NCBI GenBank assembly: GCA_041158505.1
Contig: JBEBBG010000007.1
Coordinates: forward strand, 27,879-91,878
Reading direction: 5' to 3'
Length of the DNA: 64,000 nt
From: Candidatus Parcubacteria bacterium
GTDB lineage: Bacteria > Patescibacteriota > Minisyncoccia > Phycocordibacterales > JAACPR01
Shown: positions 2,988 through 17,488 of the stretch, one piece after another
Numbering within the stretch: position 1 is the first letter of the stretch
Layout of the letters: each line of letters starts with the position of its first letter
Notes under the pieces: model-generated
The model's database searches: none
What the model saw: only the letters and a program-made list of their open reading frames with translations
What the model was told of the DNA's origin: nothing
Made by a program: the position numbers and the translations under genes

Positions 2988-3218
2988 TTACCCCTCATCT
3001 GGAAGCTCGACTGAAAGCAGCTTTGATGGCGAATGATGCCCCGAGACAATGCGGATCTGGCCCGCCTCAGGAAAGTGCTCGCGAATGATTTCAAGAACCC
3101 GCGCATTTGCCATATTTCGCTCAGCGGGCTCCTTAATTCGAACAGAAACATGTGTGGCATCGAGCGCCTCGACCACCTCTTCTTTGGCATGAGCAACGAC
3201 CTTTACGTGAATATACAT
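2988..3218 (-). CDS. DUF167 (YggU-like) small protein. It is the internal-Met portion of the 177-aa ORF.
   Basis: MYIHVKVVAHAKEEVVEALDATHVSVRIKEPAERNMANARVLEIIREHFP...IRIVSGHHSPSKL matches the DUF167/YggU pattern (xKANxAL...IVSGxxSRxK). The upstream part of the ORF overlaps the tRNA/intron antisense and is not counted as coding. Confidence 0.5.
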   Translation of the reverse strand: MYIHVKVVAHAKEEVVEALDATHVSVRIKEPAERNMANARVLEIIREHFPEAGQIRIVSGHHSPSKLLSVELPDEG

Positions 3219-3361
3219 ACGCGTACTATACCCCGTTTGGCGGACAGGTCTAGACAGCTCCCCAATCGGTTGGTACGATAACGGGCACACCAGCTTTGTG
3301 GCGGCCACGCACACGTGCACGCCAAACCAAAGCTGGTGCAGGTTCTCCAAAAACCACATAT

Positions 3362-3692
3362 TCCCCTGTAGCTCAGCGGTAGAGCAATCGACTGTGTCAC
3401 AAGTGTTTAAACACAAAGACCATACGCAGCTTCCAGTACGAAAGTCTGGTCGAAAAACGAGGTGAATTGCTGGAAGCCCATACATGAAAGTGTACGGGTA
3501 ATCAGCAGCCAAGCCGTACATTTACGGAAGGTTCAGAGACTATCTCGAAAGAGAGTAGTTCGCATCACGCGCACGAAGCGCCTCGCACCTACGTTCAAGT
3601 AATTGAATAAGGTGATGATATAGTCCATCCCTAGAAGTAATTTTAGGATTAATGTAATCGATTGGCCGCAGGTTCGAATCCTGCCGGGGGAG
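3362..3692 (+). tRNA. tRNA-Asn(GUU), split by a group I intron. Exon 1 is 3362-3395, exon 2 is 3655-3692, with a G discriminator and no encoded CCA.
   Basis: Joined exons give UCCCCUGUAGCUCAGCGGUAGAGCAAUCGACUGU|UAAUCGAUUGGCCGCAGGUUCGAAUCCUGCCGGGGGAG. This is a canonical cloverleaf: 7-bp acceptor, GCUC/GAGC D-stem, AUCGA/UCGAU anticodon stem, anticodon loop CUGUUAA, and T-arm GCAGG-UUCGAAU-CCUGC. It is near-identical in layout to bacterial tRNA-Asn. Confidence 0.7.
3396..3654 (+). ncRNA. Group I self-splicing intron (259 nt) in the anticodon loop of tRNA-Asn, between anticodon nt 35 and 36
   Basis: The 5' exon ends in U (3395) and the intron ends in G (3654, omega-G). Conserved P7 elements are present: R-like GTTCAGAGACTA at 3530-3541 and S-like (GATG)ATATAGTCC at 3613-3626, which allow GACUA/UAGUC pairing. 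A possible IGS, GCAG at 3433-3436, is complementary to the exon CUGU. The intron is too short to carry an ORF. Confidence 0.6.
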
Positions 3693-5222
3693 CATAGAAG
3701 TGATTTTAGACCCAGAAGAAGCTTTTACCGCATTGGTAAAGGCTTTTTTTGGTTCGAAAGTATTTTCATCCAAAATGAGTTTTTCATAGAGCTTTCGAAC
3801 TGGTGTTTTTAGCTCGTATTCCACCTTTCCGTCTTTGAGACTGATGTGTTTGAAGAGATGCTTCAAAAGCATACGCTTTTCAGCAGGCGTTCTCTTTGAG
3901 TAAATTTCTTTTGCCCTTGAAGCCAATTCAAGGATATTGAGACCTATCTCAAAGTATTCAGCTTCCTGCGTCTTGAGGCGTTCTAGCTGGGTTGTAAGAG
4001 CCTTTTGCTCATCAATAAGCACTTTGTGTTTACCAGTCCAAAACTCATCTGAAATAACCCCTGAAAGCTTGTCATCATAAAGCCTGTCAATTTTTACCTG
4101 AACCGCTTTGTATTGGGAATTGAGGCTATTTAGGACTGACTCTTTGTAGGCAACTTCTTCTGAGTGATTTGCCTTTATCTTTTCCCTGATTTGTTCAACA
4201 TCAGTCTTGGTAAGCTTGGCAAAAACATCCATCACGTTTACCAAACCTGACTCGATTACTTCTTCACGAGTGTATTTCTTTTGCTTACAGTCTTTGTAGT
4301 GATTACAGTGACAGTAAACGTGACCTTTTTGTATTTCCGAAGTGATACCTCCTCCACACTCACCACAAGTAATCATCTTGGAGAACAGGAACTCCTTTCG
4401 AAGATAGAATGGTGCTTTCTTTCTAATCCTGATTTCTTGGATTTGGTCATAGGTCTCTTTTGTGATGAGTGGTTCGTGGTCACCTTTCATCAGTTTTCCT
4501 TTCCAAGTAAACGCACCGTAATTGAAAGTATCTCCAAGCAATCTCTCAATCTGACTCTTGTAGAGTTTCTTTCCGTATCGAGTCCTCACGCCACTATCAG
4601 TAGCCATTTTGAGCAGAGCTTTCATTGAGTACTGACCTGTGGCATATGACTCAAGCAATTTCTTTACTGCAAGATTGGTTTCTGGGTCTTTGATGAAATG
4701 CTTTCTACCTTTTTCACCAACACTTTGGTATCCATACTTGAAAGAGCCAGGGTACATCCCTTGAGAAGCTTTCTCGTTCAATCCTTTGTGCACTTCTTCG
4801 GATAGATTATTTGTGTAGAAGCGAGCAATAGCTACTTTCATATCCCAAACAAGATTCTCGTGAGCACGAGTATTCTTATTCACAATAAAATTCTCTTTGA
4901 CGAAGTGAATGGTTCTGTCAGAGCTTTCCTGAACCCAATCGTTTACGGTAGCCGCATCTTTGAGATTTCGAGTAAGACGGTCAATCTTTTCACACAGGAT
5001 ATTTTCAATATCGTGCTTAGATGCATACTCAAGCATTTCATTGAAGATTGTTCTTATTTGCTTACCACTTGCTGACTCACTAATGCGAAAGATTTTAGCG
5101 ACTTTGAAACCTTTCTTTTCTGCATAATCCTCAAGCAGTTTCTGTTGAGCATCGAGAGAATAACCTGTATCTTCTTGTTCTCTTGATGACACTCGACAAT
5201 AAATAACGCAATTTGACTTCAT
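3540..5222 (-). CDS. Large serine recombinase (resolvase domain, recombinase domain, zinc ribbon, coiled coil)
   Basis: The N-terminus IYCRVSSREQ carries the catalytic Ser of the resolvase fold. A CGECGG...CHC zinc ribbon and a long coiled-coil tail follow. The last ~55 codons read antisense through tRNA exon 2 and the intron P7-P9 region, so the true C-terminus is uncertain. The gene is AT-rich. Confidence 0.85.
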   Translation of the reverse strand: MKSNCVIYCRVSSREQEDTGYSLDAQQKLLEDYAEKKGFKVAKIFRISESASGKQIRTIFNEMLEYASKHDIENILCEKIDRLTRNLKDAATVNDWVQESSDRTIHFVKENFIVNKNTRAHENLVWDMKVAIARFYTNNLSEEVHKGLNEKASQGMYPGSFKYGYQSVGEKGRKHFIKDPETNLAVKKLLESYATGQYSMKALLKMATDSGVRTRYGKKLYKSQIERLLGDTFNYGAFTWKGKLMKGDHEPLITKETYDQIQEIRIRKKAPFYLRKEFLFSKMITCGECGGGITSEIQKGHVYCHCNHYKDCKQKKYTREEVIESGLVNVMDVFAKLTKTDVEQIREKIKANHSEEVAYKESVLNSLNSQYKAVQVKIDRLYDDKLSGVISDEFWTGKHKVLIDEQKALTTQLERLKTQEAEYFEIGLNILELASRAKEIYSKRTPAEKRMLLKHLFKHISLKDGKVEYELKTPVRKLYEKLILDENTFEPKKAFTNAVKASSGSKITSMLPRQDSNLRPIDYINPKITSRDGLYHHLIQLLERRCEALRARDANYSLSR

Positions 5223-5487
5223 AAATATATTTTAGCTTAGTTTTTGATAATACTCACCCCTTTTCCTAATGATTTCATAGGAAATAAGAGAGATGTTTAT
5301 GTAGCCAGAATTGTGATAGTGACCTCCAAAGTTCCTCCAGATAAGCTAGTCTTTTTGACTTGGCGTTTCGCTTCTCCTTATTTTCTTTGAGGTTGTATCG
5401 GAGCATATCCGATGCAGGTCAGACGGCTGGGTGGCAAGGGGGCAACCATTTTCCCAGCTTTCGCACCTGAACCTGATATGCAACTTA

Positions 5488-5530
5488 TTGTTTGGTTTTG
5501 AGATTGAGCCGTAGTCTCAAAACTTTTAGC
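5488..5530 (+). terminator. Intrinsic terminator (9-bp stem GTTTTGAGA/TCTCAAAAC followed by TTTTAGC) with no annotated upstream ORF
   Basis: The hairpin is read directly from the sequence. Confidence 0.4.
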
Positions 5531-6309
5531 AGACTTGTTTAGCCTCTTTGTCGTGAAAAGAGGGTTCTTCTGACATTGTGATTAGCTTGCTCTCGCAAGA
5601 CTCTGGAAAAGGCTCTCCGTCAGCCAGAGAAGAGCCTTTTTCAATTTCCTGCGAATTAGAAAGTCTATGCTTTTTAGCATCTTCAAAATCAAATTGAGCC
5701 AACAGGTCAAAGAAACCCGCTAGCTCGGTGATAGAATCGTTGTTTGATTTTGATTGGCTGACTATTTCCATATCGCTACCAACTGGAGCGAGAAATATGT
5801 CTGCCTAATACAAAACGCGAACCATTAGGACAAGACGCATTTCTGCATCTAAGAGTCCATCGGTTCGCGTTCCCAATCTTTCAAGTTTCAGTCTGGCAAT
5901 TGAGTTCCTCCGACATCAAAAGTGTTAGACTTGAAACCACTGAACTGGGTGTGGCTTAGCAATAGTATGTATTCAGTTGTAACTAAATTTTAGCACAGGA
6001 TTATGTGAGCTCAAGTGGAAAATACAGAGCAACACAAAAGGATTTATATGACTAGAAAAGGGTTCAATAGACCCATATAGTAAAAAGGTATTTTCTGTTA
6101 TAATTTGCAGGACAACTGAATATGTCGACCTAACCCTTAGGGATTTTCTCTAAGGTATGGTCAAAAACGCGACGAACATAAAAACCCCATCATTAGGGCG
6201 TTCGTCGCGTTGTATCTGGAAACGGATATAGAGACCTTCGGGTCTTCCTAGTGGTGGGATTTTTGTGTCTCAGCCCTAGGTATTATCAATAAAATCGCGA
6301 CGAACGATT

Positions 6310-6495
6310 ATGACTACAATAAATTTAGGTCTGTTTATTTGGGGCTTATTACTTACGCTCCAAGTAATGCAAAATATGAAGCGGATAGATAAGCTTAGTT
6401 GGGACTTGGCTCATAAAATGGACAAGCCAGAAGAAGAAACTCCAACTGAAAAGTTTATGCGTGAGAGAAAGGAGAAGACAGAAACTAAAGGGTAG
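6310..6495 (+). CDS. Small hypothetical membrane peptide (61 aa)
   Basis: One N-terminal transmembrane helix and a charged tail. It is convergent with, and overlaps by 11 nt, the HTH gene. Confidence 0.3.
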   Translation: MTTINLGLFIWGLLLTLQVMQNMKRIDKLSWDLAHKMDKPEEETPTEKFMRERKEKTETKG

Positions 6496-6886
6496 CTTTG
6501 GCAATTTTTTGAGCAAACATTTCATCAAACATCTTCTTACTCCTATCCATAGACTCACGGAGTTCCTCACTAATTTCCTGACTCTCAACTCTCTGGGAGA
6601 ACTCATTTTTATATTTACGCTCAAGCCACCACGCTGAGGCTTGCCAGCTTTTCTCAGAAGCCTTTTCGATGTTCTTGATGTGTCTTCTTTTACACTCAAT
6701 CTCTTTTTGTCTTATTTGTTCTGAAAAGTCTGAATTCTGACGCTTCCACAACGACAAAGTATCCTCGCTAATTCCAGCAAGGATTGAGGCATCACGTTGA
6801 GTGAGACCATCAGCAATAGCATCAAGAATTATCTTGATAGTAGTGGGTGTTGCCTTATATGATTTTGGAATAAGAGGCTTTGCCAT
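6485..6886 (-). CDS. HTH DNA-binding protein, terminase small subunit (Terminase_2)-like
   Basis: IKIILDAIADGLTQRDASILAGISEDTLSLWKRQNSDFSEQI...SWQASAWWLERKYKNEF resembles the phage TerS-type HTH. Its start lies 3 nt after the protease stop, so it is likely co-transcribed. Confidence 0.5.
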   Translation of the reverse strand: MAKPLIPKSYKATPTTIKIILDAIADGLTQRDASILAGISEDTLSLWKRQNSDFSEQIRQKEIECKRRHIKNIEKASEKSWQASAWWLERKYKNEFSQRVESQEISEELRESMDRSKKMFDEMFAQKIAKATL

Positions 6887-6888
6887 AT

Positions 6889-9180
6889 TTATTTGTTTTC
6901 AACTCTAACTTCAGATTCAACCCGTATCTTGATTGGAACCAGTGCGTCATACTTGTTCACTATTTTTGAGTAGACATCAATGGACTCCTCAGAGCTTTCA
7001 ACGGTCAAAACAACAGCAAACCTGATTTTCCTGTTCTTATATCGAGTACCTCTTTCAAAGGCGTGTATATGAAAGAAAGGGTTGTCTATGTTCTCGATTT
7101 TCTTTCCTAAAGTTCGTGTATCAACGCTGTCCCATTTCAGGTCGGCACGCAATTCGTCTTCTGGAGCATAGGGTGCAGGAGCAGAATCAGGCACGGGAAA
7201 TTCAGACTGTTCCCAACCTGCATCAAGGAGACTTTGTACTTGAGCCGATTCGGTTCTCAAGTCCAGCACCTGCTTGCGTTCACCTTTCTTACTAAAACGA
7301 TATTTCTTTGAATTTGGATACAGGGTCATTACCACTGACGAAGCTGTATAGTCGTCAGGACTTTGCGGGTCAATTGCCGTTGATACAGCAATAGTCCATC
7401 TGAAGTTTACTTTGCCTCGGTCAATTGCATCATCCCAAGGTATCGTAAATTCAGCATATTTTTTTGGAAGCAATTCACCTTTGTATATCAGGGTGTAAGA
7501 ATTGCTTTTACAGGTTACGATTTCATCTACTGTTTCAGCCAAAATACCGTGACCCGTTTCATTGCTATGCTTCTTCTCTTCGGAGTCAGCACTGTGAATG
7601 AGGAGTGCTCTTGCGACAAGGGGGTCAATAGCACCGTCACTGTATCCAACTAACTGTCCTGCATATCCAGCGACAATAGGACTTGCAAAGCTTGTGCCTT
7701 GATTCCAAGCTTTCTCATTCAAGTTATGTGCAACAAGATGGATAGGGTGCTGGTCGCATCCTCCAAACGCCAATAGGTCTGGCTTTAGTTTATTACCCTC
7801 ACGCCCAGGACCTTTACAGCTATAAGGAGCACGAATTATCTTCCCATCTTTCTTTGTGTAAGAACCGATTCCTAGACCATTTGCCATATCTGAGGGGGCT
7901 TGTATTCTTCCAGCTGAACCACTGAGATGTCCGTCATTTCCTACAGCTACCGTAAAGAGCACATTCAATTTCGCACTGAGTAAATCGCAGGCAAAAGTGA
8001 ATCGTGAAATCAAATCATCTACAATCGGTCCCTTTGGACCAAGGCTGAGGTTCCAAACTTTTATATGCGGATTGAGAGGGACTGTCTCTTCAATCTCATC
8101 AATGATTTCGTATAGGTCTGGGTCGGAGGTATTTTGAACAGGAAGTACACGGAAGCTTTTGACACTAACCTTTGGAGTAGGGAGAGTATCGCTTGCCGAA
8201 TAATTATTTATTGCACCAAAAAGAACTGCTCCTGAAACTTGAGTTCCGTGATTTATGAATGCATCCGCTGATGCTTCTGTTGTCAGGTCTTCATTCTCAA
8301 CAAAACCTTGTAGGTATGGACTATCTTCTTTCACACCACCATCGAAGATTCCCACTACAACATCAGCCTTTTCTCCTGATGCAGGCGTTGGTCCACCACT
8401 AATAGAGCCTCCTCGGCTTACAGTCGGCAAATCACGCAAATCCATCGTATGGAGCGTTCTTAGTGGGTTGTATTCCGCAACAGTAGCAACAGTCTTCTTG
8501 GTCCCATACAAGCTCACAAAGGTGATGCCAGATTCGTATTGTTTATAACGAACTCTTCCCAAATCTACTCCTGACTTCTTTAGAAGCTCAAGAAAGTTAT
8601 TGAGTGCTTCTTCTTTGTCTTTTTCAAAAGGATGCAGAACTGCTTCTAGTCGCCCCTCGGTCCAATCACTTGGAATCCCTAGAATTTGTTCTTCAGATTC
8701 AAGCGTATCCACTGATTTGATTGTTCTAACATCATACGCAAAGCCTTTTGTTACAAAGGCTTCTTCCTGGCTGATTTTTTGTTCAAGCTCATTCAAGCCA
8801 CGCTCAGTTGTTCTGACGAAAAACAATTTACCAGTTTCTTCAATACCGTCTTCCTCAGGAGAATTTTCACGCCAGATTCTTGAACCGATTTCTTCTACCT
8901 CACCATTTCTAGAAACCGCAGAGAAAAGGTCTCCAGGATAGTAACTTTTTGCTGAAAATTCAGGATGCATTCTCACACAAACAACGAATTCGTGTGGGAG
9001 CTTTTTATCCGCAGGGATAGTACTGAGCTTCTCTCGGGTCTGGGTGATGTCTGACAAAATTTTTGTTCTTGCCACATCATAGGAAAGAGCAGGCTCCTTT
9101 GAAGAGCCTCCGACTCTTTTCGTGATTGGTTTTGTATATATTTCTCCTTTGTAGAGAATTGGTCGGCGGTTATTTTCCAT
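6889..9180 (-). CDS. S8 family (subtilisin-like) serine peptidase, 763 aa, with extra N- and C-terminal domains
   Basis: The catalytic triad is in the correct order: VVVGIFDGGV (Asp), HGTQVSG (His) and GTSFASPIVAG (Ser). Confidence 0.85.
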   Translation of the reverse strand: MENNRRPILYKGEIYTKPITKRVGGSSKEPALSYDVARTKILSDITQTREKLSTIPADKKLPHEFVVCVRMHPEFSAKSYYPGDLFSAVSRNGEVEEIGSRIWRENSPEEDGIEETGKLFFVRTTERGLNELEQKISQEEAFVTKGFAYDVRTIKSVDTLESEEQILGIPSDWTEGRLEAVLHPFEKDKEEALNNFLELLKKSGVDLGRVRYKQYESGITFVSLYGTKKTVATVAEYNPLRTLHTMDLRDLPTVSRGGSISGGPTPASGEKADVVVGIFDGGVKEDSPYLQGFVENEDLTTEASADAFINHGTQVSGAVLFGAINNYSASDTLPTPKVSVKSFRVLPVQNTSDPDLYEIIDEIEETVPLNPHIKVWNLSLGPKGPIVDDLISRFTFACDLLSAKLNVLFTVAVGNDGHLSGSAGRIQAPSDMANGLGIGSYTKKDGKIIRAPYSCKGPGREGNKLKPDLLAFGGCDQHPIHLVAHNLNEKAWNQGTSFASPIVAGYAGQLVGYSDGAIDPLVARALLIHSADSEEKKHSNETGHGILAETVDEIVTCKSNSYTLIYKGELLPKKYAEFTIPWDDAIDRGKVNFRWTIAVSTAIDPQSPDDYTASSVVMTLYPNSKKYRFSKKGERKQVLDLRTESAQVQSLLDAGWEQSEFPVPDSAPAPYAPEDELRADLKWDSVDTRTLGKKIENIDNPFFHIHAFERGTRYKNRKIRFAVVLTVESSEESIDVYSKIVNKYDALVPIKIRVESEVRVENK

Positions 9181-9181
9181 A

Positions 9182-10315
9182 TTATTCTTGTTTAGCTATA
9201 TGGTACTGAACTCCACCTGGACTGAATCCTGTGATTTCGGCTAACTCTCTTACAGTGATTTCATTTCCCAACATCTGTTTAGCTAGTATGCAAAATTTTC
9301 CTTTGGTGTCTTTATCGTTTGTATATGCTTCTACGGCGTGAAGAATTGCCTTTGGCATATCCTCATCTTTCAAGACAACTCTACGCTTGATATTTTCAGC
9401 CAAACGACATAGGTCAGCAGGGCTTCTATTCACCAGTAACTCCGCTACTGCGGGCATAAAAGCTTCGTCTTTCTTGGACAAAAATTCTCCTAACTCGTTT
9501 TTTAGAATCTGAATTCTCTCATTCTGCTCTGGTAGACCTAGCTCAAGAACGTGGTCAAAACGTCTCCATATTGCTCGGTCCAAGAGTTCAGGGTGATTGC
9601 TTGTAGCAATAACTACCGATGAGACTGGCCACGATTCAAGCTCCATAAGCAAAACGTTCACAACTCTTTTGATTTCTCCCAAGTCAGTGGAGTCATCTCG
9701 TCTTTTAGCAATTGCATCAAACTCATCCAGCAAAAGAACAGCTGAACTTTGTCGGGCATATTCCAAAACTTTCTTTAGGTTTTGCCCCGTCTTTCCCAAT
9801 AGGCTTGAAATACTTGTAGACAAATCTAAAACTATCAAATTCTTATTCAAAGCTGATGCTATGTATCGAGCAAGCATCGTCTTGCCTGTACCAGGTAGTC
9901 CTGTGAGCAGGAGTCCTGTGGAAGGCTTGATACCTTTATCGAGCAAGTGAGATATTTTTTCTCTCTCGTGCAAAAAACTATCAACAACCTCTTTCAAAAC
10001 TGGGCTTAGAATTGGAAAGGTGTTGCGTTCAGTATCTGGAGGGAAAATAGTTGCCATCTCCAGTCGACTATCTGAATCAGTGGGGATAGGAGTGTTCACA
10101 CCTCGTGTGAAAGATGGGTTGAGAGAGTGGGAGCTTAGTGTAAAAATTATTTTCTTTGCCAACTCAGGCTCAGAAGCTTTTATCAATCGAGATAGATTGA
10201 GTGCATATGCTTCTACTTCGTCATTCTTCTTTTTCAGACCTGAAATAATCAGGTCAATCAGAGTCTTATCGTATGCTGAAACTTTAGTTGTTTTTTTGGT
10301 CATATGTAAATTCAC
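9182..10315 (-). CDS. Classic AAA+ ATPase with a C-terminal HTH
   Basis: Walker A is GLPGTGKT, Walker B is LLLDEFDA, and the second region of homology is SNHPELLDRAIWRRFD. The C-terminus ITVRELAEITGFSPGGVQYHI is HTH-like. Its stop is 2 nt before the protease start. Confidence 0.85.
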   Translation of the reverse strand: MNLHMTKKTTKVSAYDKTLIDLIISGLKKKNDEVEAYALNLSRLIKASEPELAKKIIFTLSSHSLNPSFTRGVNTPIPTDSDSRLEMATIFPPDTERNTFPILSPVLKEVVDSFLHEREKISHLLDKGIKPSTGLLLTGLPGTGKTMLARYIASALNKNLIVLDLSTSISSLLGKTGQNLKKVLEYARQSSAVLLLDEFDAIAKRRDDSTDLGEIKRVVNVLLMELESWPVSSVVIATSNHPELLDRAIWRRFDHVLELGLPEQNERIQILKNELGEFLSKKDEAFMPAVAELLVNRSPADLCRLAENIKRRVVLKDEDMPKAILHAVEAYTNDKDTKGKFCILAKQMLGNEITVRELAEITGFSPGGVQYHIAKQE

Positions 10316-10357
10316 TAAACAAAACTACATAAATACCCTTATATACATACGATATCT

Positions 10358-11149
10358 TTGTTTAGTAAATTCATTATATTATCTATAACTAAACAAGTAC
10401 AGTATTTTCTGTGGAAAAGTGCACGCTATACCAGTAATTCTTGCATCTGTCCTAATGCAATATTTGGAAACGGATATTCCTCTGCCCAATTCACGGTTCG
10501 TAAATCGTCTACAAGAGCGAGCATGCAAATATTAATAGAGCCAATTATAAACGATAAGATCCAACAGGACATAGTACAAGGTGAAAAATTTTTCCTGAGC
10601 TTGCGCGTGACAAATAAAACAATTACTCCTAGTGAAAATTTTACAATTGAATCAATGGTCTTGTTTTATAAACAGTCGGATATTGTAGACGATTGTGAAA
10701 ATAAAAGTTATTTTATAAGAAAATTAAACCCTGATGAATCTTTAACATTAGAAATAGGGTATTTTGTCGCAATTGTACATGGATTAATCAGTTTAAAAAT
10801 AAATGCTCGGTCAGAAAATAATACTCCAATAAGCTTTTTACAATCCCAGCATAAAATTGGAACTAAGCAAATAATCAACAATCCTAACGAATGGATTGAT
10901 TTTCTGTGGGTAGAAAGTAAGAGTGAGAACAATCAGAAAAAAACTAATATTATTACTTTGTGGTTGAACATATTATTGCTTTTTATTGCATCCATTCAAA
11001 TACAGGAAAAGATTAATATTCAAGATTTCTTTAAAAACGTAATCTTTAAATCTAATACATACAAAGAATCAGATTTTCTAGTATTAATTTTAAGTATATT
11101 GATTTCATTAAGTGCTTTAATTTTCTTTAAAAAGAAAGATAGATTCTAA
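10358..11149 (+). CDS. Hypothetical protein, very AT-rich (~28% GC), with a C-terminal TM helix. The true start may be the internal Met near 10520.
   Basis: Only the ORF itself; no recognisable domain. Confidence 0.3.
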   Translation: MFSKFIILSITKQVQYFLWKSARYTSNSCICPNAIFGNGYSSAQFTVRKSSTRASMQILIEPIINDKIQQDIVQGEKFFLSLRVTNKTITPSENFTIESMVLFYKQSDIVDDCENKSYFIRKLNPDESLTLEIGYFVAIVHGLISLKINARSENNTPISFLQSQHKIGTKQIINNPNEWIDFLWVESKSENNQKKTNIITLWLNILLLFIASIQIQEKINIQDFFKNVIFKSNTYKESDFLVLILSILISLSALIFFKKKDRF

Positions 11150-11176
11150 AAATAAGCCAAATATAACAACCCACTG

Positions 11177-11208
11177 CACTGGTTCGAGCCAAACGCAGTC
11201 CGCGGAGC
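11177..11208 (+). repeat. Cassette-boundary repeat, copy 1 (CACTGGTTCGAGCCAAACGCAGTCCGCGGAGC)
   Basis: First of 10 co-oriented copies of the 32-34-nt motif. It precedes the first cassette. Confidence 0.8.
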
Positions 11209-11271
11209 ATCTGAAAAATACCTTTTAATCAATAACGAGTAGAATTTCAAAGCTTTTGCTATACTGCCGAT

Positions 11272-11982
11272 ATGAAATTCGATAAAACTAAACTAGAGGA
11301 GTATCTCAAAGCATTCTTTCAAGAATACGAAGTAAACGGTCTGCTTTCTGTGTACCTGTGGGGTTCAATCACTACAGGCGAATTTGCTATTGAGACAAGT
11401 GATATAGACATTATCGCAATAGTTAGACCAGAGCATTCAATTGACCAATCTGCTATCAAAGAAAAACTTAATGCATGTTTTGATGATTTCAAACATTTCG
11501 GATTTAACGTAATCAGAGAAGATGAACTAACAGAAGGAGTCGGGAAAGAAAGTTCAATTACCACGGTGATACATCCACGGATACTTCTTGCTGATATGCG
11601 AGATTGGAAGCACGTGTTTGGAAATAACTACTCAATTAGCAGCTTTACGACGAACCCTCCACTGCCAGATGAATTAATCGGTTTGGAAATAAAGAAAATA
11701 ATCAGAGACGGTTGGAACGATTCAGCAAATGTGGGAGACAATTTTGTACAATATCATCTCAAGGGAATTATGCGAATCATTTACTATACTCAACTCAAGC
11801 GTCATGAACACTTCCCTTTTTCTTACACAAACATAAGACAGAAAGCCAACAAAGAAGAAGCCAATCTAATTGACTTTTTTTATGAGAACAAAGAAAAGGG
11901 ATACAGTAAACAACACCTCTTAGAGAATAAGTTTTTAGTAGACTCCTATATAAAGAAAATGATAGAGGAGTTTACAAAATAG
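11272..11982 (+). CDS. Nucleotidyltransferase-fold protein (ANT/AadA/Lnu-like, Pol-beta superfamily)
   Basis: LWGSITTGEFAIETSDIDIIAIV matches the GS-x9-13-DxD nucleotidyltransferase signature. Its 236-aa size is similar to aminoglycoside and lincosamide nucleotidyltransferases. Confidence 0.55.
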   Translation: MKFDKTKLEEYLKAFFQEYEVNGLLSVYLWGSITTGEFAIETSDIDIIAIVRPEHSIDQSAIKEKLNACFDDFKHFGFNVIREDELTEGVGKESSITTVIHPRILLADMRDWKHVFGNNYSISSFTTNPPLPDELIGLEIKKIIRDGWNDSANVGDNFVQYHLKGIMRIIYYTQLKRHEHFPFSYTNIRQKANKEEANLIDFFYENKEKGYSKQHLLENKFLVDSYIKKMIEEFTK

Positions 11983-11994
11983 TCACAAACTCAA

Positions 11995-12026
11995 CACTGG
12001 TTCGAACTAAACCAAGTCCGCGGAGC
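11995..12026 (+). repeat. Cassette-boundary repeat, copy 2
   Basis: CACTGGTTCGAACTAAACCAAGTCCGCGGAGC. Confidence 0.8.
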
Positions 12027-12094
12027 GCGGTTGACAAAGTAAAAATCTAGTGATAATTTCCAAACGGTCTTAGTTCAACAAAAACCAAACGTCA

Positions 12095-12430
12095 ATGACA
12101 GGAATCAGAAAACCATCGGACGGAATCGTCGCGCTTACCTGTGAACCCGATGCATCCCCCGTTGCACAGCTAGCCGATACAGCAGAAGCCACTGCTTGGA
12201 CCGAAGAGGTGCTCGCGGCAATTACAAAGGAGCTCACAGATCCACGTAATGCCTACCGCGCACCAGAACATCCCCTGCGAGCTTACCTGGATTCACTCAA
12301 GCTGCTGTTGGAGAAACTTCAGACGAGGCAGCCCGTCGAGCTCTGGGAAGTGCATCGGGAGTTAGCAAGGGCAAACTCTCAGTTTCACGACGACAGTTTT
12401 ACCGAAGCGTGCACGCTGCTGTTCGGATAA
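12095..12430 (+). CDS. Hypothetical cassette protein (111 aa, ~55% GC)
   Basis: An ORF between two repeats, followed by a terminator. Confidence 0.4.
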   Translation: MTGIRKPSDGIVALTCEPDASPVAQLADTAEATAWTEEVLAAITKELTDPRNAYRAPEHPLRAYLDSLKLLLEKLQTRQPVELWEVHRELARANSQFHDDSFTEACTLLFG

Positions 12431-12501
12431 ATTCACAGCCGCCCAACATGCTACCCCTACTTATCAAGCAAGGGGTACGCTTTTTCTTTTCTACCCCACC
12501 A

Positions 12502-12533
12502 CACTGGTTCGAGCTAGCTCAAGTCCGCTGAGC
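12502..12533 (+). repeat. Cassette-boundary repeat, copy 3
   Basis: CACTGGTTCGAGCTAGCTCAAGTCCGCTGAGC, preceded by a hairpin and TTTTTCTTTTCTACCCC. Confidence 0.8.
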
Positions 12534-12674
12534 TCTTGTAAATAAAAAATATAATTTAGTCTCTACATACTATAGTTCTTGATACTCACCTATTTTTGTT
12601 TAGTTTTCCACATACACAAATGGACCCATGATTAATGAGGCCATTTATGTATAAAACTACTTATACAAGTTATA

Positions 12675-13052
12675 CTATTGAACAAGCATAACGCCGCTAT
12701 GTACGCCTAAGTTGTAGGCTGTTCTAAGTGCTTCGGCTAGTGAGTTGGCCATAACACTGGTGCGTTGACCTGAAGTGTTTATAAACTCATACACGTGCGC
12801 CCCTTGTCCCATCGAAACTTGGCCACCAGCAATAGAAGTATCACCTCTCACAAGCATAACGCCACTATGTACGCCTAAGTTGTAGGCTGTTCTAAGTGCT
12901 TCAGCTGATGAATTAGCAACAACACTAGTGCGTTGATTTGAACTGTTTATGAACTCATACGTAGAAGCTTCCGCAAAATTTGCAGATCCTAGAGTTAGCA
13001 TAAGCGCACCTAACATAAACAATCCCGATGCAACATTTGTTTTTTTATTCAT
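12675..13052 (-). CDS. Secreted hypothetical protein with an internal ~56-aa tandem duplication
   Basis: Signal peptide MNKKTNVASGLFMLGALMLTLGSANFA. The two repeats are YEFINSSNQRTSVVANSSAEALRTAYNLGVHSGVMLV and YEFINTSGQRTSVMANSLAEALRTAYNLGVHSGVMLV. This is the only minus-strand gene in the array. Confidence 0.5.
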   Translation of the reverse strand: MNKKTNVASGLFMLGALMLTLGSANFAEASTYEFINSSNQRTSVVANSSAEALRTAYNLGVHSGVMLVRGDTSIAGGQVSMGQGAHVYEFINTSGQRTSVMANSLAEALRTAYNLGVHSGVMLVQ

Positions 13053-13533
13053 CTTTTTTTATTATTATTTTTTAATAAGCAAAGATATCTACTACATTTT
13101 TTGATAAAATATCAAAATGCATAGTCTTCAATATTTGAGAGTTACAGATAGTTTTTATAAATAACTGTAATAGACAAAATAGATTTTCAACCACTAATCT
13201 ATATTTTCGATAGATGCTCTTGCTACATATAAAAGTGTATACAATATATTGACAAAAAGCAAGTTTAATTGCATTATGACACACAAATACCAACCATACT
13301 AATCTCACCCTTTCTATTTACCCTCTTCCAATTCAAAGTTCTGTTTTTATTTCTCCTCTCCCGAACTAGTTCAAACGGAAGTAGACTCATTAGCACGCGT
13401 GGGTCTTTTTCTTTCTTGTTGAACGATACGAGTACACACTCAGCGCGGCATACACCCATCCTTGACTTCCCCACCTTTTAAAACTAATGTCGTTTAAGAT
13501 CCTAGACACACCACACAACCCACTTACAGAATC

Positions 13534-13800
13534 ATGAGTGATACCGTTACACGCATTGGTGACATGAACGCAATCCGCTGGCTTCTCGTCATGCGCCAAA
13601 GTGATGGCGACATTATTGTTCGGATTGTACAAGAGGGCGAAGTCGTCGGAGGAGAAGACTATGGCAATCCAATGGTTCCTTCTGCGGAAGTCGAATTCTG
13701 CCTTAGTGGCGGCAGGAGCAAGCACACTCGTGTAGCACTGCTTGCCTTAATGGAAGCAATGGAGCGAGATAACCAAGAACGCCCCATACCCTACGACTGA
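13534..13800 (+). CDS. Hypothetical cassette protein (88 aa)
   Basis: An ORF with a terminator at 13831-13867. Confidence 0.35.
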   Translation: MSDTVTRIGDMNAIRWLLVMRQSDGDIIVRIVQEGEVVGGEDYGNPMVPSAEVEFCLSGGRSKHTRVALLALMEAMERDNQERPIPYD

Positions 13801-13874
13801 ACCGCGAGAAGCAGCCCAAATACTCACACAGCCTCTGAACCCCAAACGTCAGAGGTGTTTTCTTTTCTACCCCA

Positions 13875-13906
13875 CACTGGTTCGAGCGAGTTGCAGTCCG
13901 CGGAGC
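13875..13906 (+). repeat. Cassette-boundary repeat, copy 4
   Basis: CACTGGTTCGAGCGAGTTGCAGTCCGCGGAGC. Confidence 0.8.
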
Positions 13907-13978
13907 ACTTTGACAATTTCTTAATTTAGTTTTAAAGTTTTTTCTAGACAAAAAATAACATCAACCTGAAAGGAGGCA

Positions 13979-14356
13979 TTGATGCCAGAAGATATTTACG
14001 ATTTAGAGGGTGAGGCAAGCTCCTTTGGAGATTACATTAACGCTTGGTACTTGCCAATTAGCAACCTTATGTCACGGCGAAAACAATGGGATGAAGCAAC
14101 CCTATTCAACTGGATAGAAGCTCATCCCATACAATCATTCACCTTGAGGTACGGGGGTGGCAAAAGTTCTTCAATGGAATGGTGTTTCACCAAATACCCC
14201 ACTCGAGTAGCTCGCCTAGATAGACTCTCCGAACTAGCCAACTCGTGCAAGGACATCACGGAGTTTAAGCGTATCTGCAATGAACTTTTTCGATTGGTGA
14301 ATGGTAGAGTTGCGTTTCCTGGAGAATTGTACAACCCCGACCTACTTGAATTGTGA
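13979..14356 (+). CDS. Hypothetical cassette protein (125 aa)
   Basis: An ORF followed by a terminator and repeat. Confidence 0.4.
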   Translation: MMPEDIYDLEGEASSFGDYINAWYLPISNLMSRRKQWDEATLFNWIEAHPIQSFTLRYGGGKSSSMEWCFTKYPTRVARLDRLSELANSCKDITEFKRICNELFRLVNGRVAFPGELYNPDLLEL

Positions 14357-14418
14357 AACAAGCCTCGCGAAGCTTCGACTTCGGTTGGGACTTTCGTGTT
14401 TTTCTTTCTACCCCACCA

Positions 14419-14450
14419 CACTGGTTCGGACTAGCTCAAGTCCGCGGAGC
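14419..14450 (+). repeat. Cassette-boundary repeat, copy 5
   Basis: CACTGGTTCGGACTAGCTCAAGTCCGCGGAGC. Confidence 0.8.
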
Positions 14451-14503
14451 CCTGACTTAAATCTTATCTTTCAATTGTATTCGGAACTGCTAAGATTAAT
14501 TAC

Positions 14504-15112
14504 ATGAAAATCATTTTGACCATAATTACAGTGCTATGCATTTGTGCTGCTTCTATTTTATATTTTTCACCGAAAACAGAGACTGAAACAACAATGAGTA
14601 CTTGGAAAACGTACACAAATACATTTTATGGTTTTACCCTTAAGTATCCTCGTGACATGTTTGTACTAGGGTGGCCCCTCGATTTTGAAATACACCAACC
14701 CTTACCAACTGAAAATGGTTACAATAATCAAATATTTATTACTCCATCAAGAACGATAAGCGATGTAGATCGTGATTACATGGCAATTCGTTTTGCCGAA
14801 GATGTGCGCAATGATACCCGCTCAATTCAGCAGCATTTCAAAGAAGATGCCCGATTCGTGACACACAATGTAGAAGATATAAGAACAATTAACGGTGTTG
14901 ATTTTATTTTTATAAGAACTGAACAAGGTGATTCAATCGCATATTTCAAAGTAAATGGCTACATTTTAAGCGCTGAGATGGACAAAAATTTCCCCAGCCA
15001 GGAACTGTTCATGGAAATCCTAGACACATTTGAAGTTGTGCCCAAAACTAAGCAAGAGATAGATTCTAATGTTTTTCCAAAAGGACCACCTAAAATTGAT
15101 GGCAGCATTTAG
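14504..15112 (+). CDS. Hypothetical membrane-anchored/secreted cassette protein (202 aa)
   Basis: An N-terminal TM/signal sequence. The gene is AT-rich. Confidence 0.4.
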   Translation: MKIILTIITVLCICAASILYFSPKTETETTMSTWKTYTNTFYGFTLKYPRDMFVLGWPLDFEIHQPLPTENGYNNQIFITPSRTISDVDRDYMAIRFAEDVRNDTRSIQQHFKEDARFVTHNVEDIRTINGVDFIFIRTEQGDSIAYFKVNGYILSAEMDKNFPSQELFMEILDTFEVVPKTKQEIDSNVFPKGPPKIDGSI

Positions 15113-15158
15113 AATTGACTCAATATTCTAGCTTGGTCAACATTTTAATACCCCACCG

Positions 15159-15190
15159 CACTGGTTCGAGCGAGCGTCAGTCCGCAAAGC
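15159..15190 (+). repeat. Cassette-boundary repeat, copy 6 (variant ending CGCAAAGC)
   Basis: CACTGGTTCGAGCGAGCGTCAGTCCGCAAAGC. Confidence 0.75.
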
Positions 15191-15253
15191 TACCATTTGA
15201 CATATTATATTAAATATGTTTTTATTTTGTAAATTCAACAGAAGGAGTAACAA

Positions 15254-15640
15254 TTGAAAAGAAAGAAGAAAACAAAAGGAGTTTTGGGAGACCAAGGAGT
15301 AAAGATCAAGCAGCCAGTGCCAACAACAACCATTTCTCAAGAGGGGATTGCCTCCAGAAAACCACTGAGAAGATTTGGTATCAACTTCAGGCACAGAGGA
15401 CACTACTTCTGGTTTCTGGTTTCGACAACAATCTTGCTTGCAAGCGTTGTCGCCAGTGGTGTCGGCGGTAATCCAGTTTGGATTTCCATGGCTGGACTCT
15501 TTTTCCTCCAATCTAGCCTGGCGGCTGTTTTCGATACCAGAATGGGCACACGGGAGACCAGGTTATTCTCGGTTGACTGCATATGGTTCAACGGCCTGAT
15601 GGGAGGGATTTGCATCTTTATCACGAAAATATTCTTTTAA
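15254..15640 (+). CDS. Hypothetical membrane cassette protein (128 aa)
   Basis: Predicted TM helices. Confidence 0.35.
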   Translation: MKRKKKTKGVLGDQGVKIKQPVPTTTISQEGIASRKPLRRFGINFRHRGHYFWFLVSTTILLASVVASGVGGNPVWISMAGLFFLQSSLAAVFDTRMGTRETRLFSVDCIWFNGLMGGICIFITKIFF

Positions 15641-15730
15641 TGATTTGCCGATTTTTCAAGATAAATCGGAAGAGGCCCCTGATTACGTTACGTAATTCAC
15701 GGGGCTTTCGTGTTTTTCTTTTCTACCCCA

Positions 15731-15762
15731 CACTGGTTCGAGCGAGCGTCAGTCCGCGGAGC
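15731..15762 (+). repeat. Cassette-boundary repeat, copy 7
   Basis: CACTGGTTCGAGCGAGCGTCAGTCCGCGGAGC. Confidence 0.8.
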
Positions 15763-15835
15763 AAATATTGACTTAATCAAAAATAAGTGCTATAAAAAAT
15801 ACAACTGTTTTTTCCAATTCAACCCCCTTTTAACA

Positions 15836-16393
15836 ATGAAAACATTTCTGGTAACAGACAGGTTCTCTGAGTACCTACAGGGGGTCAAAGACCTCCAAGC
15901 AAGAAACCACAAGGACGTCGTCGGGACGAGCGAGCGAGGATTCCTAACCTGCCAGTTTTCAGTTGAAGAAATCGGCCGATTTGCTAGCGAAGCTGGCATT
16001 ATCGTCGTGACAGACGATAATGGGAGTCGAGTTCTCGGCTACAACATCCTCCTGACCATCGAGCGGACTCTCACCTACCCTGCGTACAGAGGTTTGGTGC
16101 ATGCTTACCAAGAGCTGCGTCCTGAATGCGATTTGTCAAAGGTGCTGTTGGCACGACAGTACTGCGTTGACGAAAGTGCAAGAGGTGGCCCTGCGGTGAA
16201 GTCTCTATACGACGTCATGCGGTCAAAGGTGTGCATTCCTCACGGGTACACATACTCAATCGGTGAAATCGATGAGCGCAACCGCATCAGCATGGTGGCA
16301 GCAAGAAGACTCCTGGGTTACACATTTATCGGCTCTTACCAGTCCGATGGAATAACCTGGAACATCGGAGAACGTCTTGAAATCCCTGCTTGA
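15836..16393 (+). CDS. Hypothetical cassette protein (186 aa from the internal Met MKTFLVTDR)
   Basis: The ORF-track start at 15710 lies inside the preceding repeat/terminator, so the Met at 15836 was chosen. Confidence 0.4.
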   Translation: MKTFLVTDRFSEYLQGVKDLQARNHKDVVGTSERGFLTCQFSVEEIGRFASEAGIIVVTDDNGSRVLGYNILLTIERTLTYPAYRGLVHAYQELRPECDLSKVLLARQYCVDESARGGPAVKSLYDVMRSKVCIPHGYTYSIGEIDERNRISMVAARRLLGYTFIGSYQSDGITWNIGERLEIPA

Positions 16394-16469
16394 TGTCGAC
16401 GACAGTTTCAACCCCGCCCAGTAGCGCAAGCGAACGGCGGGGTTCATCTTTTTTATTTCTACCTCATCA

Positions 16470-16500
16470 CACAGGTTCGAACCAACCCAAGTCCACAGAT
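16470..16500 (+). repeat. Cassette-boundary repeat, copy 8 (degenerate)
   Basis: CACAGGTTCGAACCAACCCAAGTCCACAGATC. Confidence 0.55.
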
Positions 16501-16544
16501 CAAAATTGACTAAAATATAAAATATCTATAGCGTGTGATGGAGC

Positions 16545-16877
16545 ATGAAAGAACCTCTACCAGACATAACCCTGGAGGTGTGGCGAGACAAGGAACTCAT
16601 GTACCATTGCCGTACACACTTCAACAAAATTAAGCAGACTCAAAACCCTGCTCCCGTCCCCACCATTGACCAGTTGTTGACACTCATTACCAGCGTAATC
16701 AACTCAACTGACTCGATGATTATGCCAATACCAGAAACTGCTATCGATGAAAGATTTAAGCCTGTTGATGTTCAGGTTATAAACCAAAGAGAGCATCCAT
16801 TGGAAAGCGGGGACTTGGAAGCAGTAAAGGAGTGCGTCTTGCAATCCGAAGCAAATTGGTTTGATGAGAGTTTGTAA
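16545..16877 (+). CDS. Hypothetical cassette protein (110 aa)
   Basis: An ORF between repeats. Confidence 0.4.
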   Translation: MKEPLPDITLEVWRDKELMYHCRTHFNKIKQTQNPAPVPTIDQLLTLITSVINSTDSMIMPIPETAIDERFKPVDVQVINQREHPLESGDLEAVKECVLQSEANWFDESL

Positions 16878-16943
16878 TATTTTAAACTAAACCCTTGTAG
16901 CCGCGTCGACTTTCCACAGTTGCGTGGTTTTTCTTTTCTATTC

Positions 16944-16976
16944 CACGCTGATTCAAACCAACCTCAGTCCGCGGAG
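16944..16976 (+). repeat. Cassette-boundary repeat, copy 9 (degenerate)
   Basis: CACGCTGATTCAAACCAACCTCAGTCCGCGGAG. Confidence 0.55.
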
Positions 16977-17035
16977 ACCTTGTAAAGCAACGTAAAAAAA
17001 ATTTATTTAACAAATAATTTTGATAAAATTCTCTT

Positions 17036-17314
17036 ATGAAGAAAAATTTTAAATCACAGGGAGCAGTAAAACTATTTCCACAAAAAGGTGGATGGGTGTA
17101 TTTGCCAGTAAAACAAACTTATTCTGATTTAGGAATTACAAAACCCAAATGGGGTTTGGTTCCAGCAACAATTACAATCGGAAACACTACTTGGAAAAAA
17201 TCACTTTTACCAATGGGAGACGAAACTTTATTCATTGCTTTAAATGAAAAAGTAAGAAAAGCTGAAAATATAAAAATTGGAGATACAATAACAGCTACTT
17301 TTACATTAGATTAG
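17036..17314 (+). CDS. DUF1905-like small protein
   Basis: KGGWVYLPV...GLVPATITIGNTTWKKSLLPMGDETLFIALNEKVRKAENIKIGDTITATFTLD matches the DUF1905 pattern. Confidence 0.5.
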   Translation: MKKNFKSQGAVKLFPQKGGWVYLPVKQTYSDLGITKPKWGLVPATITIGNTTWKKSLLPMGDETLFIALNEKVRKAENIKIGDTITATFTLD

Positions 17315-17399
17315 TTCTGAAGTACTAGATTCGGAAGAAACCCCTGATTACGTAAGGTAATTCAACGGCTTTCGTGTTTCTCTTTTCTACCCCACCGCA

Positions 17400-17428
17400 C
17401 TGGCTTGATCCAGCCTCAGCTGCTTGTA
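17400..17428 (+). repeat. Cassette-boundary repeat, copy 10 (degenerate; last in the array)
   Basis: CACTGGCTTGATCCAGCCTCAGCTGCTTG. Confidence 0.5.
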
Positions 17429-17488
17429 ACTATTTACAATTCAGTATTTTTATGTTTTTATACTGCCTGGCTATTGTACCCACACATC

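Follow-up and report, generated by a model that had tools for sequence, protein, structure and literature searches.

Positions 3362–3692 of the window, i.e. the whole 64,000 nt stretch of DNA analyzed here, almost certainly represent a chromosomal tRNA-Asn(GUU) gene of a member of the Patescibacteria (CPR) that is interrupted between U35 and U36 by a 259 nt IA-type group I intron without an open reading frame. The support comes from the sequence itself, its fold, the covariation of its helices and its homology to an intron that has been proven to self-splice. The window originates from the MAG annotated by NCBI as 'Candidatus Parcubacteria bacterium' RL150 and is identical to a JGI metagenome contig. 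The class of intron is not new. It was described in 2020 and its self-splicing was shown in 2025–26, and the window is a new example. The element with a split recombinase gene that is adjacent to the tRNA gene is more unusual than the intron. The coordinates of these features are given in Table 1.

Table 1. Features of the tRNA-Asn gene, its intron and the adjacent integrative element, in window positions.
Feature	Positions	Strand	Evidence or remarks
tRNA-Asn(GUU) 5′ exon: acceptor, D-arm, anticodon stem, loop nt 32–35 (CUGU)	3362–3395	+	ARAGORN; 34/34 vs intron-less L126 tRNA-Asn
Group I intron, 259 nt, IA-type, without own ORF	3396–3654	+	Rfam RF00028, structure, covariation, MFE z = −5.8
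tRNA-Asn 3′ exon: U36 A37 A38, anticodon stem, variable loop, T-arm, acceptor, discriminator	3655–3692	+	ARAGORN; differs from L126 in T-arm only
P1: CUGU/GU 3392–3397 with ACGCAG 3424–3429	3392–3429	+	structure, covariation
P1a: small 4-bp hairpin in P1 loop	3403–3414	+	
P2: hairpin, GAAA loop	3433–3449	+	all 6 pairs changed on both sides; 84% of cells paired
P3	3458–3464 / 3579–3585	+	98.5% paired; 4 pairs with compensatory changes
P4, encloses P5	3468–3473 / 3502–3507	+	Rfam, structure, covariation (compensatory changes in P4); MFE fold
P5	3477–3498	+	Rfam, structure, alignment; MFE fold
P6	3508–3509 / 3531–3532	+	
P6a	3514–3527	+	5/5 pairs compensatory; 93% paired
P7: GAGACUA (bulged A3537) with UAGUCC; pseudoknot with P3	3536–3542 / 3621–3626	+	sequence, structure
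P7.1	3543–3554	+	all pairs with compensatory changes
P7.2	3558–3574	+	all pairs with compensatory changes
P8	3586–3614	+	9/11 pairs compensatory
P9: hairpin, then UAAUG with omega-G 3654	3630–3647	+	6/7 pairs compensatory
Large serine recombinase, integrated-form ORF, 560 aa	3540–5222	−	
attL core GAGCAT: last 3 nt of tRNA plus 3 nt; left junction	3690–3695		same hexamer ends attR
Integrative element, 6,829 bp, at 3′ terminus of tRNA-Asn	3696–10524		
LOOT RNA, between recombinase and next ORF	6127–6246	+	Rfam RF03000, 81.8 bits vs cut-off 46.4
IetS: S8 subtilase, 763 aa	6889–9180	−	PADLOC 1e-62
IetA: AAA ATPase, 377 aa	9182–10315	−	PADLOC 2e-85
attR core (10519–10524) and displaced last 30 codons of recombinase, ALVDDLRTVNWAEEYPFPNIALGQMQELLV, with stop	10426–10524	−	equivalents in L126/L127, L129

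ARAGORN with the intron search on displays tRNA-Asn(gtt) i(35,259) at positions 3362–3693. The host tRNA with its GUU anticodon, the insertion between anticodon nt 35 and 36 and the intron length of 259 nt are therefore as given in the original prediction, and the same is true of the exon U at position −1 and the terminal G of the intron: the 5′ exon ends with U3395 (...CUGU), the intron ends ...AAUG with the omega-G at G3654, and the 3′ exon begins UAAUCGAU. In-silico splicing of 3362–3692 gives a clean 73 nt tRNA-Asn cloverleaf with anticodon GUU. The discriminator base is G3692 and the next letters are CAT, thus CCA is not encoded. The spliced sequence is identical at 68 of 73 positions to the uninterrupted tRNA-Asn of L126, which is found at a syntenic yggU-hpf-fmt-def locus, and all five differences are in the T-arm. 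Since the L126 gene is an intron-less orthologue, this match is an independent check on the exon junction. Default ARAGORN reports only a tRNA-Gln in the window and misses the split tRNA-Asn. A second tRNA-Asn was not found in the 64 kb window with ARAGORN and Rfam.

For many relatives, ARAGORN and tFind read the gene as a tRNA-Thr(UGU) with an intron at 33/34. Both registers can be reconstituted in 47 or more related loci, and the Thr reading is often the one chosen by published tools as listed in Table 1 of PMC13011429. In the window, however, the shift of two bases makes the intron end in A and not in G, and because of this the splice register is unambiguous; a search for U(−1)/G(omega) junctions gave no Thr candidate in the window. 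The 68/73 match of the tRNA body is to an intron-less tRNA-Asn, and splicing at 35/36 has been shown experimentally for a homologue (PMC13011429). A tRNA-Thr has practically no chance of being the correct assignment here, and the gene is treated below as tRNA-Asn(GUU) split at 35/36.

A weak promoter-like site is present upstream of the tRNA-Asn at 3251–3279. Downstream of it, the spacer that separates yggU from the tRNA has a long inverted repeat, CACCAGCTTTG...CAAAGCTGGTG, at 3290–3340 (+). Directly 3′ of the tRNA a 10-bp hairpin at 3720–3744 is followed by seven T's; this was seen by eye and is absent from the output of the scan tool. A mechanical open reading frame of 177 aa at 2988–3521 (−), which runs over the tRNA 5′ exon and into the intron, extends yggU (DUF167) in the upstream direction; as called, the yggU gene is only 76 aa long and is at 2988–3218.

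The Rfam model RF00028 (Intron_gpI) matches positions 3364–3647 over its full length (model positions 1–253) with 80.8 bits and E = 6e-19. The gathering score of the model is 50 bits and the match is far beyond chance. The group I identity that had been proposed is thus borne out by the Rfam model and by a covariation-supported P1–P9 fold, two checks that had been suggested together with the proposal. The P7 hallmark strings are also present as originally described, GTTCAGAGACTA at 3531–3542 and ATATAGTCC at 3618–3626. For the fold, the Rfam alignment was combined with manual pairing, and every pair was checked as standard. All helices from P1 to P9 are standard-paired, as are P7.1 and P7.2, and the P3–P7 core is foldable. 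A plain MFE fold (−86.1 kcal/mol, z = −5.8) recovers P3, P4, P5, P6, P7.1, P8 and P9. P7 would be the guanosine-binding helix.

P7.1 and P7.2, which lie between P7 and the 3′ strand of P3, are a hallmark of subgroup IA; Rfam aligns this stretch as an insertion. From these two helices and the published classification of the relatives the intron appears to be of the IA type. The 5′ splice site is after U3395, which forms a U·G wobble with G3426 of the IGS inside a 6-bp P1. The IGS GCAG is at 3426–3429 and not at 3433–3436 as first given, a displacement of 7 nt. The exon side of P1 has only 4 bp, after which there is an A·C mismatch. A convincing P10 pairing could not be drawn for the window intron.

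Species-representative genomes were scanned with the P7...P7′ motif at IA-type spacing, and this gave at least 120 loci, mostly in Patescibacteria MAGs. When the U(−1)/G(omega) junctions were rebuilt and the spliced products submitted to ARAGORN, at least 79 of the loci listed were found to have a tRNA-Asn(GUU) split at 35/36. The introns in these 79 loci are 212–630 nt long and 26 of them are long introns (524–630 nt). By analogy with the long tRNA-Asn introns in PMC13011429, the 26 probably carry an HNH homing-endonuclease open reading frame. An HNH-like open reading frame was read in four long-intron relatives (L125, L011, L080 and L130), where it occupies the P1 loop immediately 5′ to the IGS. 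At the position of the window P1a, L024 has a hairpin that covaries. The contents of the P1 loop are consistent with gain or loss of an endonuclease.

Covariation was assessed with 47 short homologous tRNA-Asn introns (alignment A1). Standard pairs are present in 85.6% of cells compared with 71.5% in shuffles, and none of 500 shuffles reaches the observed value. Slid registers give 34–43% of cells paired. Changes on both sides are found for 51 of the 77 pairs, and P2, P3, P6a, P7.1, P7.2, P8, P9 and the +1 pair of P1 covary, the last with GC in 20, AU in 12 and CG in 11 homologues. The four exon pairs of P1 and the U·G wobble are invariant in 47/47 homologues and the omega-G is an invariant column. 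P7 is invariant as well, which is because the P7 motif is the pattern with which the homologues were retrieved.

Self-splicing of the window copy would proceed by the two standard transesterifications. The precursor would be transcribed as a single RNA, in which the intron folds into P1–P9 with P7.1 and P7.2. An exogenous guanosine bound in P7 would attack after U3395, opposite G3426. The terminal G3654 would then take the place of the guanosine, and ligation of the exons would give a 72 nt tRNA body to which CCA is added. We infer that the locus is the only tRNA-Asn gene of the cell and that splicing is needed for Asn decoding.

It is very improbable that the intron is a dead relic in a tRNA pseudogene whose work is done by another tRNA-Asn gene. 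The core helices, the U·G pair, the omega-G and the conserved junctions are all intact, the same architecture is maintained by compensatory changes in the 47 relatives, and the conservation of the exons equals that of the intron-less orthologue. This is set against three points which would fit a relic, namely that the part of the genome in view is only 64 kb, that the exon side of P1 is short and followed by a mismatch, and that the intron has no homing endonuclease. An intact intron in a working tRNA-Asn gene is thus the reading that is followed here.

The nearest genome locus among those listed is L024, from a Saccharibacteria MAG, where the intron is also present at this locus, with 79% identity over the whole intron-containing gene. 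The genes def, fmt, PPIase, hpf and yggU are collinear in the window and L024. A tRNA-Asn in the same synteny is also found in L126, L128 and L129. The 35/36 intron is present in the window, L024 and L128 and absent in L126 and L129, where the gene is uninterrupted. The comparison is of value because it shows related CPR genomes with and without the intron at a single syntenic locus.

The open reading frame that converges on the tRNA gene displays Resolvase, Recombinase and zinc-ribbon domains (PF00239, PF07508, PF13408). Its codons 512–560 read the antisense of the tRNA 3′ exon and of 115 intron nt (3540–3654), and its stop codon, TAG at 3540–3542, is the complement of the 'CUA' of P7. Four homologues (P0003, P0045, P0058 and P0116; 543–548 aa) keep a C-terminus of the form LLAL.DDFRTI.W..EYP.P, and a peptide of this type is encoded in the window at 10426–10518 (−) (E = 1e-11). 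When attL and attR are joined in silico the result is an in-frame protein of 541 aa, which aligns over positions 1–541 with P0003 (545 aa) at 70% identity and essentially end to end with P0045, P0058 and P0116. The shared GAGCAT cores together with the rejoined in-frame protein thus point to an element of 6,829 bp with a recombinase gene that is predicted to span attP. Integration would replace the last 30 codons of this gene by antisense-tRNA codons.

Displaced C-terminal fragments in the predicted orientation are also found in L126/L127 and L129. The exact 541 aa attP form had no match in the protein collection. The predicted junctions are AAGAGCGAGCATAGAAGTGATTTT for the reconstructed attP and CCGGGGGAGCATGCAAATATTAATAG for the reconstructed empty attB. 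A metagenome scan for the empty attB of this strain gave two related loci only, and both are occupied by a recombinase. No description of an attP-spanning serine recombinase at a tRNA in Patescibacteria was found in the literature searched, which is weak evidence of novelty. The predicted cargo of the element is the IetAS defence gene pair, the LOOT RNA and two small open reading frames. Nothing usable was found in the literature on the LOOT motif.

Recombinases that are convergent to the tRNA and abut it are found in at least 13 scanned loci and in both metagenome loci, and in the further homologue loci examined a tRNA-Asn is at the site in 4 of 4. Among the best 120 homologues, 102 have a tail that is the antisense translation of a tRNA acceptor and T-arm. 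The tail stops in 71 of these at an ending of the type '...LLRG' plus stop, and in 31 it reads on through '...DSNL...'. The '...LLRG' stop of L126 is a TAG in the antisense of the T-stem. In intron-less hosts the read-through ends at a TAA that is the complement of U35-U36-A37 ('...RPIA' or '...RPID' plus stop). In the window, at 3652–3657 (−), the intron splits this TAA into TA and C, and as a result the open reading frame of the recombinase runs on for 38 codons into the intron antisense. The integrated recombinase open reading frame thus appears to have no stop codon of its own, and the intron status of the host gene would set its length.

The uninterrupted open reading frame of 560 codons passes through 3540–3693 and has been deposited as protein MEY2640852.1, which could be taken to mean that this region primarily encodes the recombinase C-terminus and that its RNA features are secondary. 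However, the tail is a by-product of integration, as the native C-terminus is at 10426–10518 and rejoining restores the 541 aa protein. Three of 13 recombinase-linked loci have another frame with respect to the tRNA (L079 and L080 share one frame and L118 has a third), and the stop is set only by the host tRNA, i.e. by the T-stem TAG, the anticodon-loop TAA or a stop in the intron. A primarily protein-coding role is hardly credible on this evidence, and 3540–3693 is regarded as part of the tRNA-Asn gene and its intron. A wider proposal is that a family of small integrative elements, Patescibacteria-wide in distribution, uses tRNA-Asn, with or without the intron, as its attachment site, and that the swap of the C-terminus may be an undescribed integration/excision switch in serine recombinases with which the intron interferes. 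This is a tentative suggestion and is rather unlikely to hold in full.

Several other arrangements were considered and rejected. One is a crossover at GGTTCGAA, a motif found downstream of the tRNA at a distance of 58 nt, with GGTTCGAACC at 16474 as its partner (junction FEPV followed by two stops). It is ruled out by conservation as protein, among elements, of the segment between this motif and the tRNA, and by the displaced C-terminus at 10426–10518 with its GAGCAT core. Carriage of the tRNA 3′ half or of the intron by the element was rejected, since neither the 3′ exon nor the intron occurs twice in the window; it is also contradicted by the 86%-identical recombinase P0001, the tail of which is the antisense of a different, intron-less tRNA-Asn. 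Protection of attB by the intron was likewise considered and rejected. A NUDIX gene at 18.5 kb as the island boundary is superseded by attR at 10524, and the NUDIX of L126 is inside the element.

The region beyond attR (10.5–17.4 kb) has a low GC content. It contains ten direct copies of a 55 nt repeat, D1, at 11157–17432 (+) with a spacing of 452–1373 nt. The D1 consensus is ...CCCCACCACACTGGTTCGAGC.AGC.CAGTCCGCGGAGC and D1 ends ...GTCCGCGGAGC, which resembles a tRNA 3′ end. Most copies are located after a terminator-like hairpin with a T-tract and before a promoter-like TTGACA element and a small gene on the plus strand, and the layout is cassette-like. A Pfam match was found for one of ten D1-associated products tested. 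No match to D1 was found in viral contigs. D1 was also considered as att or P-arm sites, as it shares the CAC..GGTTCG..(18 nt)..GAGC spacing with the window P arm. This was rejected, since the two have unrelated interiors, conservation of the motif does not extend to the P arms of L126 and L129, and a promoter-like TTGACA follows each repeat.

Two further repeats were observed. A 111 nt direct repeat has two copies at 12682–12792 and 12850–12960, which are 88% identical, 168 nt apart and within an open reading frame at 12675–13052 (−). The exact sequence TTTTCTTTTCTA occurs right after GC-rich hairpins at 12482, 13858, 15714, 16929, 18461 and 57806 (+), both in and outside the island. With up to 2 mismatches there are 27 matches compared with 8.5 expected. 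It resembles a terminator T-tract that is characteristic of this genome.

The intron is significant mainly for annotation. Default tRNA finders miss this intron-split gene, and genomes of this kind therefore seem to be without a tRNA-Asn and are rated incomplete, a point that is also made by Nakagawa et al., who find that standard tools miss or mislabel Patescibacteria tRNA introns (PMC13011429). The window enlarges by one sequence a family whose self-splicing has already been shown. The neighboring element could matter more than the intron. It is compact and precisely delimited, both attL and attR are defined, attP and attB can be reconstructed, and its target is a conserved tRNA end in organisms that have almost no genetic tools.

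The number of known types of bacterial tRNA group I introns increased from 4 to 21 with the work of Williams (2020, bioRxiv 10.1101/2020.01.27.920355), and according to Nakagawa et al. (PMC13011429) the 'Asn.4Ug' type is already included there. In 95 complete Patescibacteria genomes, 15 of 22 tRNA introns are in tRNA-Asn(GUU) at 35/36 (Nakagawa et al., mSystems 2026, PMC13011429). This is the commonest tRNA intron in Patescibacteria and its self-splicing was shown in vitro, the tRNA-Asn intron gene of GCA_016700035.1 being spliced precisely at 35/36. Of 28 introns at this position 25 are of subgroup IA, and none of the Patescibacteria tRNA introns was placed in IC (PMC13011429). The original prediction held an Asn(GUU) host with an insertion at 35/36 to be unusual. 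That premise is out of date because the type was published in 2020, with splicing in vitro shown later and characterization by Nakagawa et al. in 2026.

The intron-containing gene of the window is 76% identical to the validated GCA_016700035.1 gene and 71–75% identical to three other genes of Table S3 of PMC13011429. From the published Asn 35/36 class and the identity to its members, the window intron is a new member of that class. The Patescibacteria Asn.4Ug introns and the window intron have the same tRNA, insertion site, U(−1)/G(omega) junctions and P7.1/P7.2 architecture as well as a CPR host, and share the conserved strings GCAGC (IGS), GGTGAATTGC, AAGGTTCAGAGACTA, AGCGCC and GATGAKATAGTCC. 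They differ in the P1 loop, where the relatives have either an HNH homing-endonuclease open reading frame or nothing and the window has the 4-bp P1a. The window copy also belongs to a different species, on a metagenome/MAG contig, with a Saccharibacteria MAG as its closest relative.

The classical tRNA introns are those of Leu(UAA) at 34/35, fMet at 33/34, and Ile(CAU) and Arg(CCU) at 36/37, and they are of subgroup IC3. Like the window intron they are small, lack an open reading frame, are located in the anticodon loop and display the P7 and J8-7 core sequence, and the same two-step guanosine-initiated mechanism is presumed for both. However, they are found in other tRNAs at other insertion positions and have no P7.1/P7.2. 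The window gene is 63% identical, over aligned positions, to the Nostoc tRNA-Leu gene with its IC3 intron.

The integrative element may be compared with the SSV1-type integrases of archaeal fuselloviruses. In these, attP is inside the integrase gene, and integration into a tRNA gene splits the integrase gene. The window element is similar in that its recombinase gene would span attP and is partitioned at a tRNA gene, with the displaced piece at the other end of the element. It differs from SSV1 in its enzyme, a bacterial large serine recombinase in place of a tyrosine integrase, in the displacement of no more than the last 30 codons, and in the position of the crossover, which lies at the 3′ terminus of the tRNA (core GAGCAT) and not within the tRNA body.
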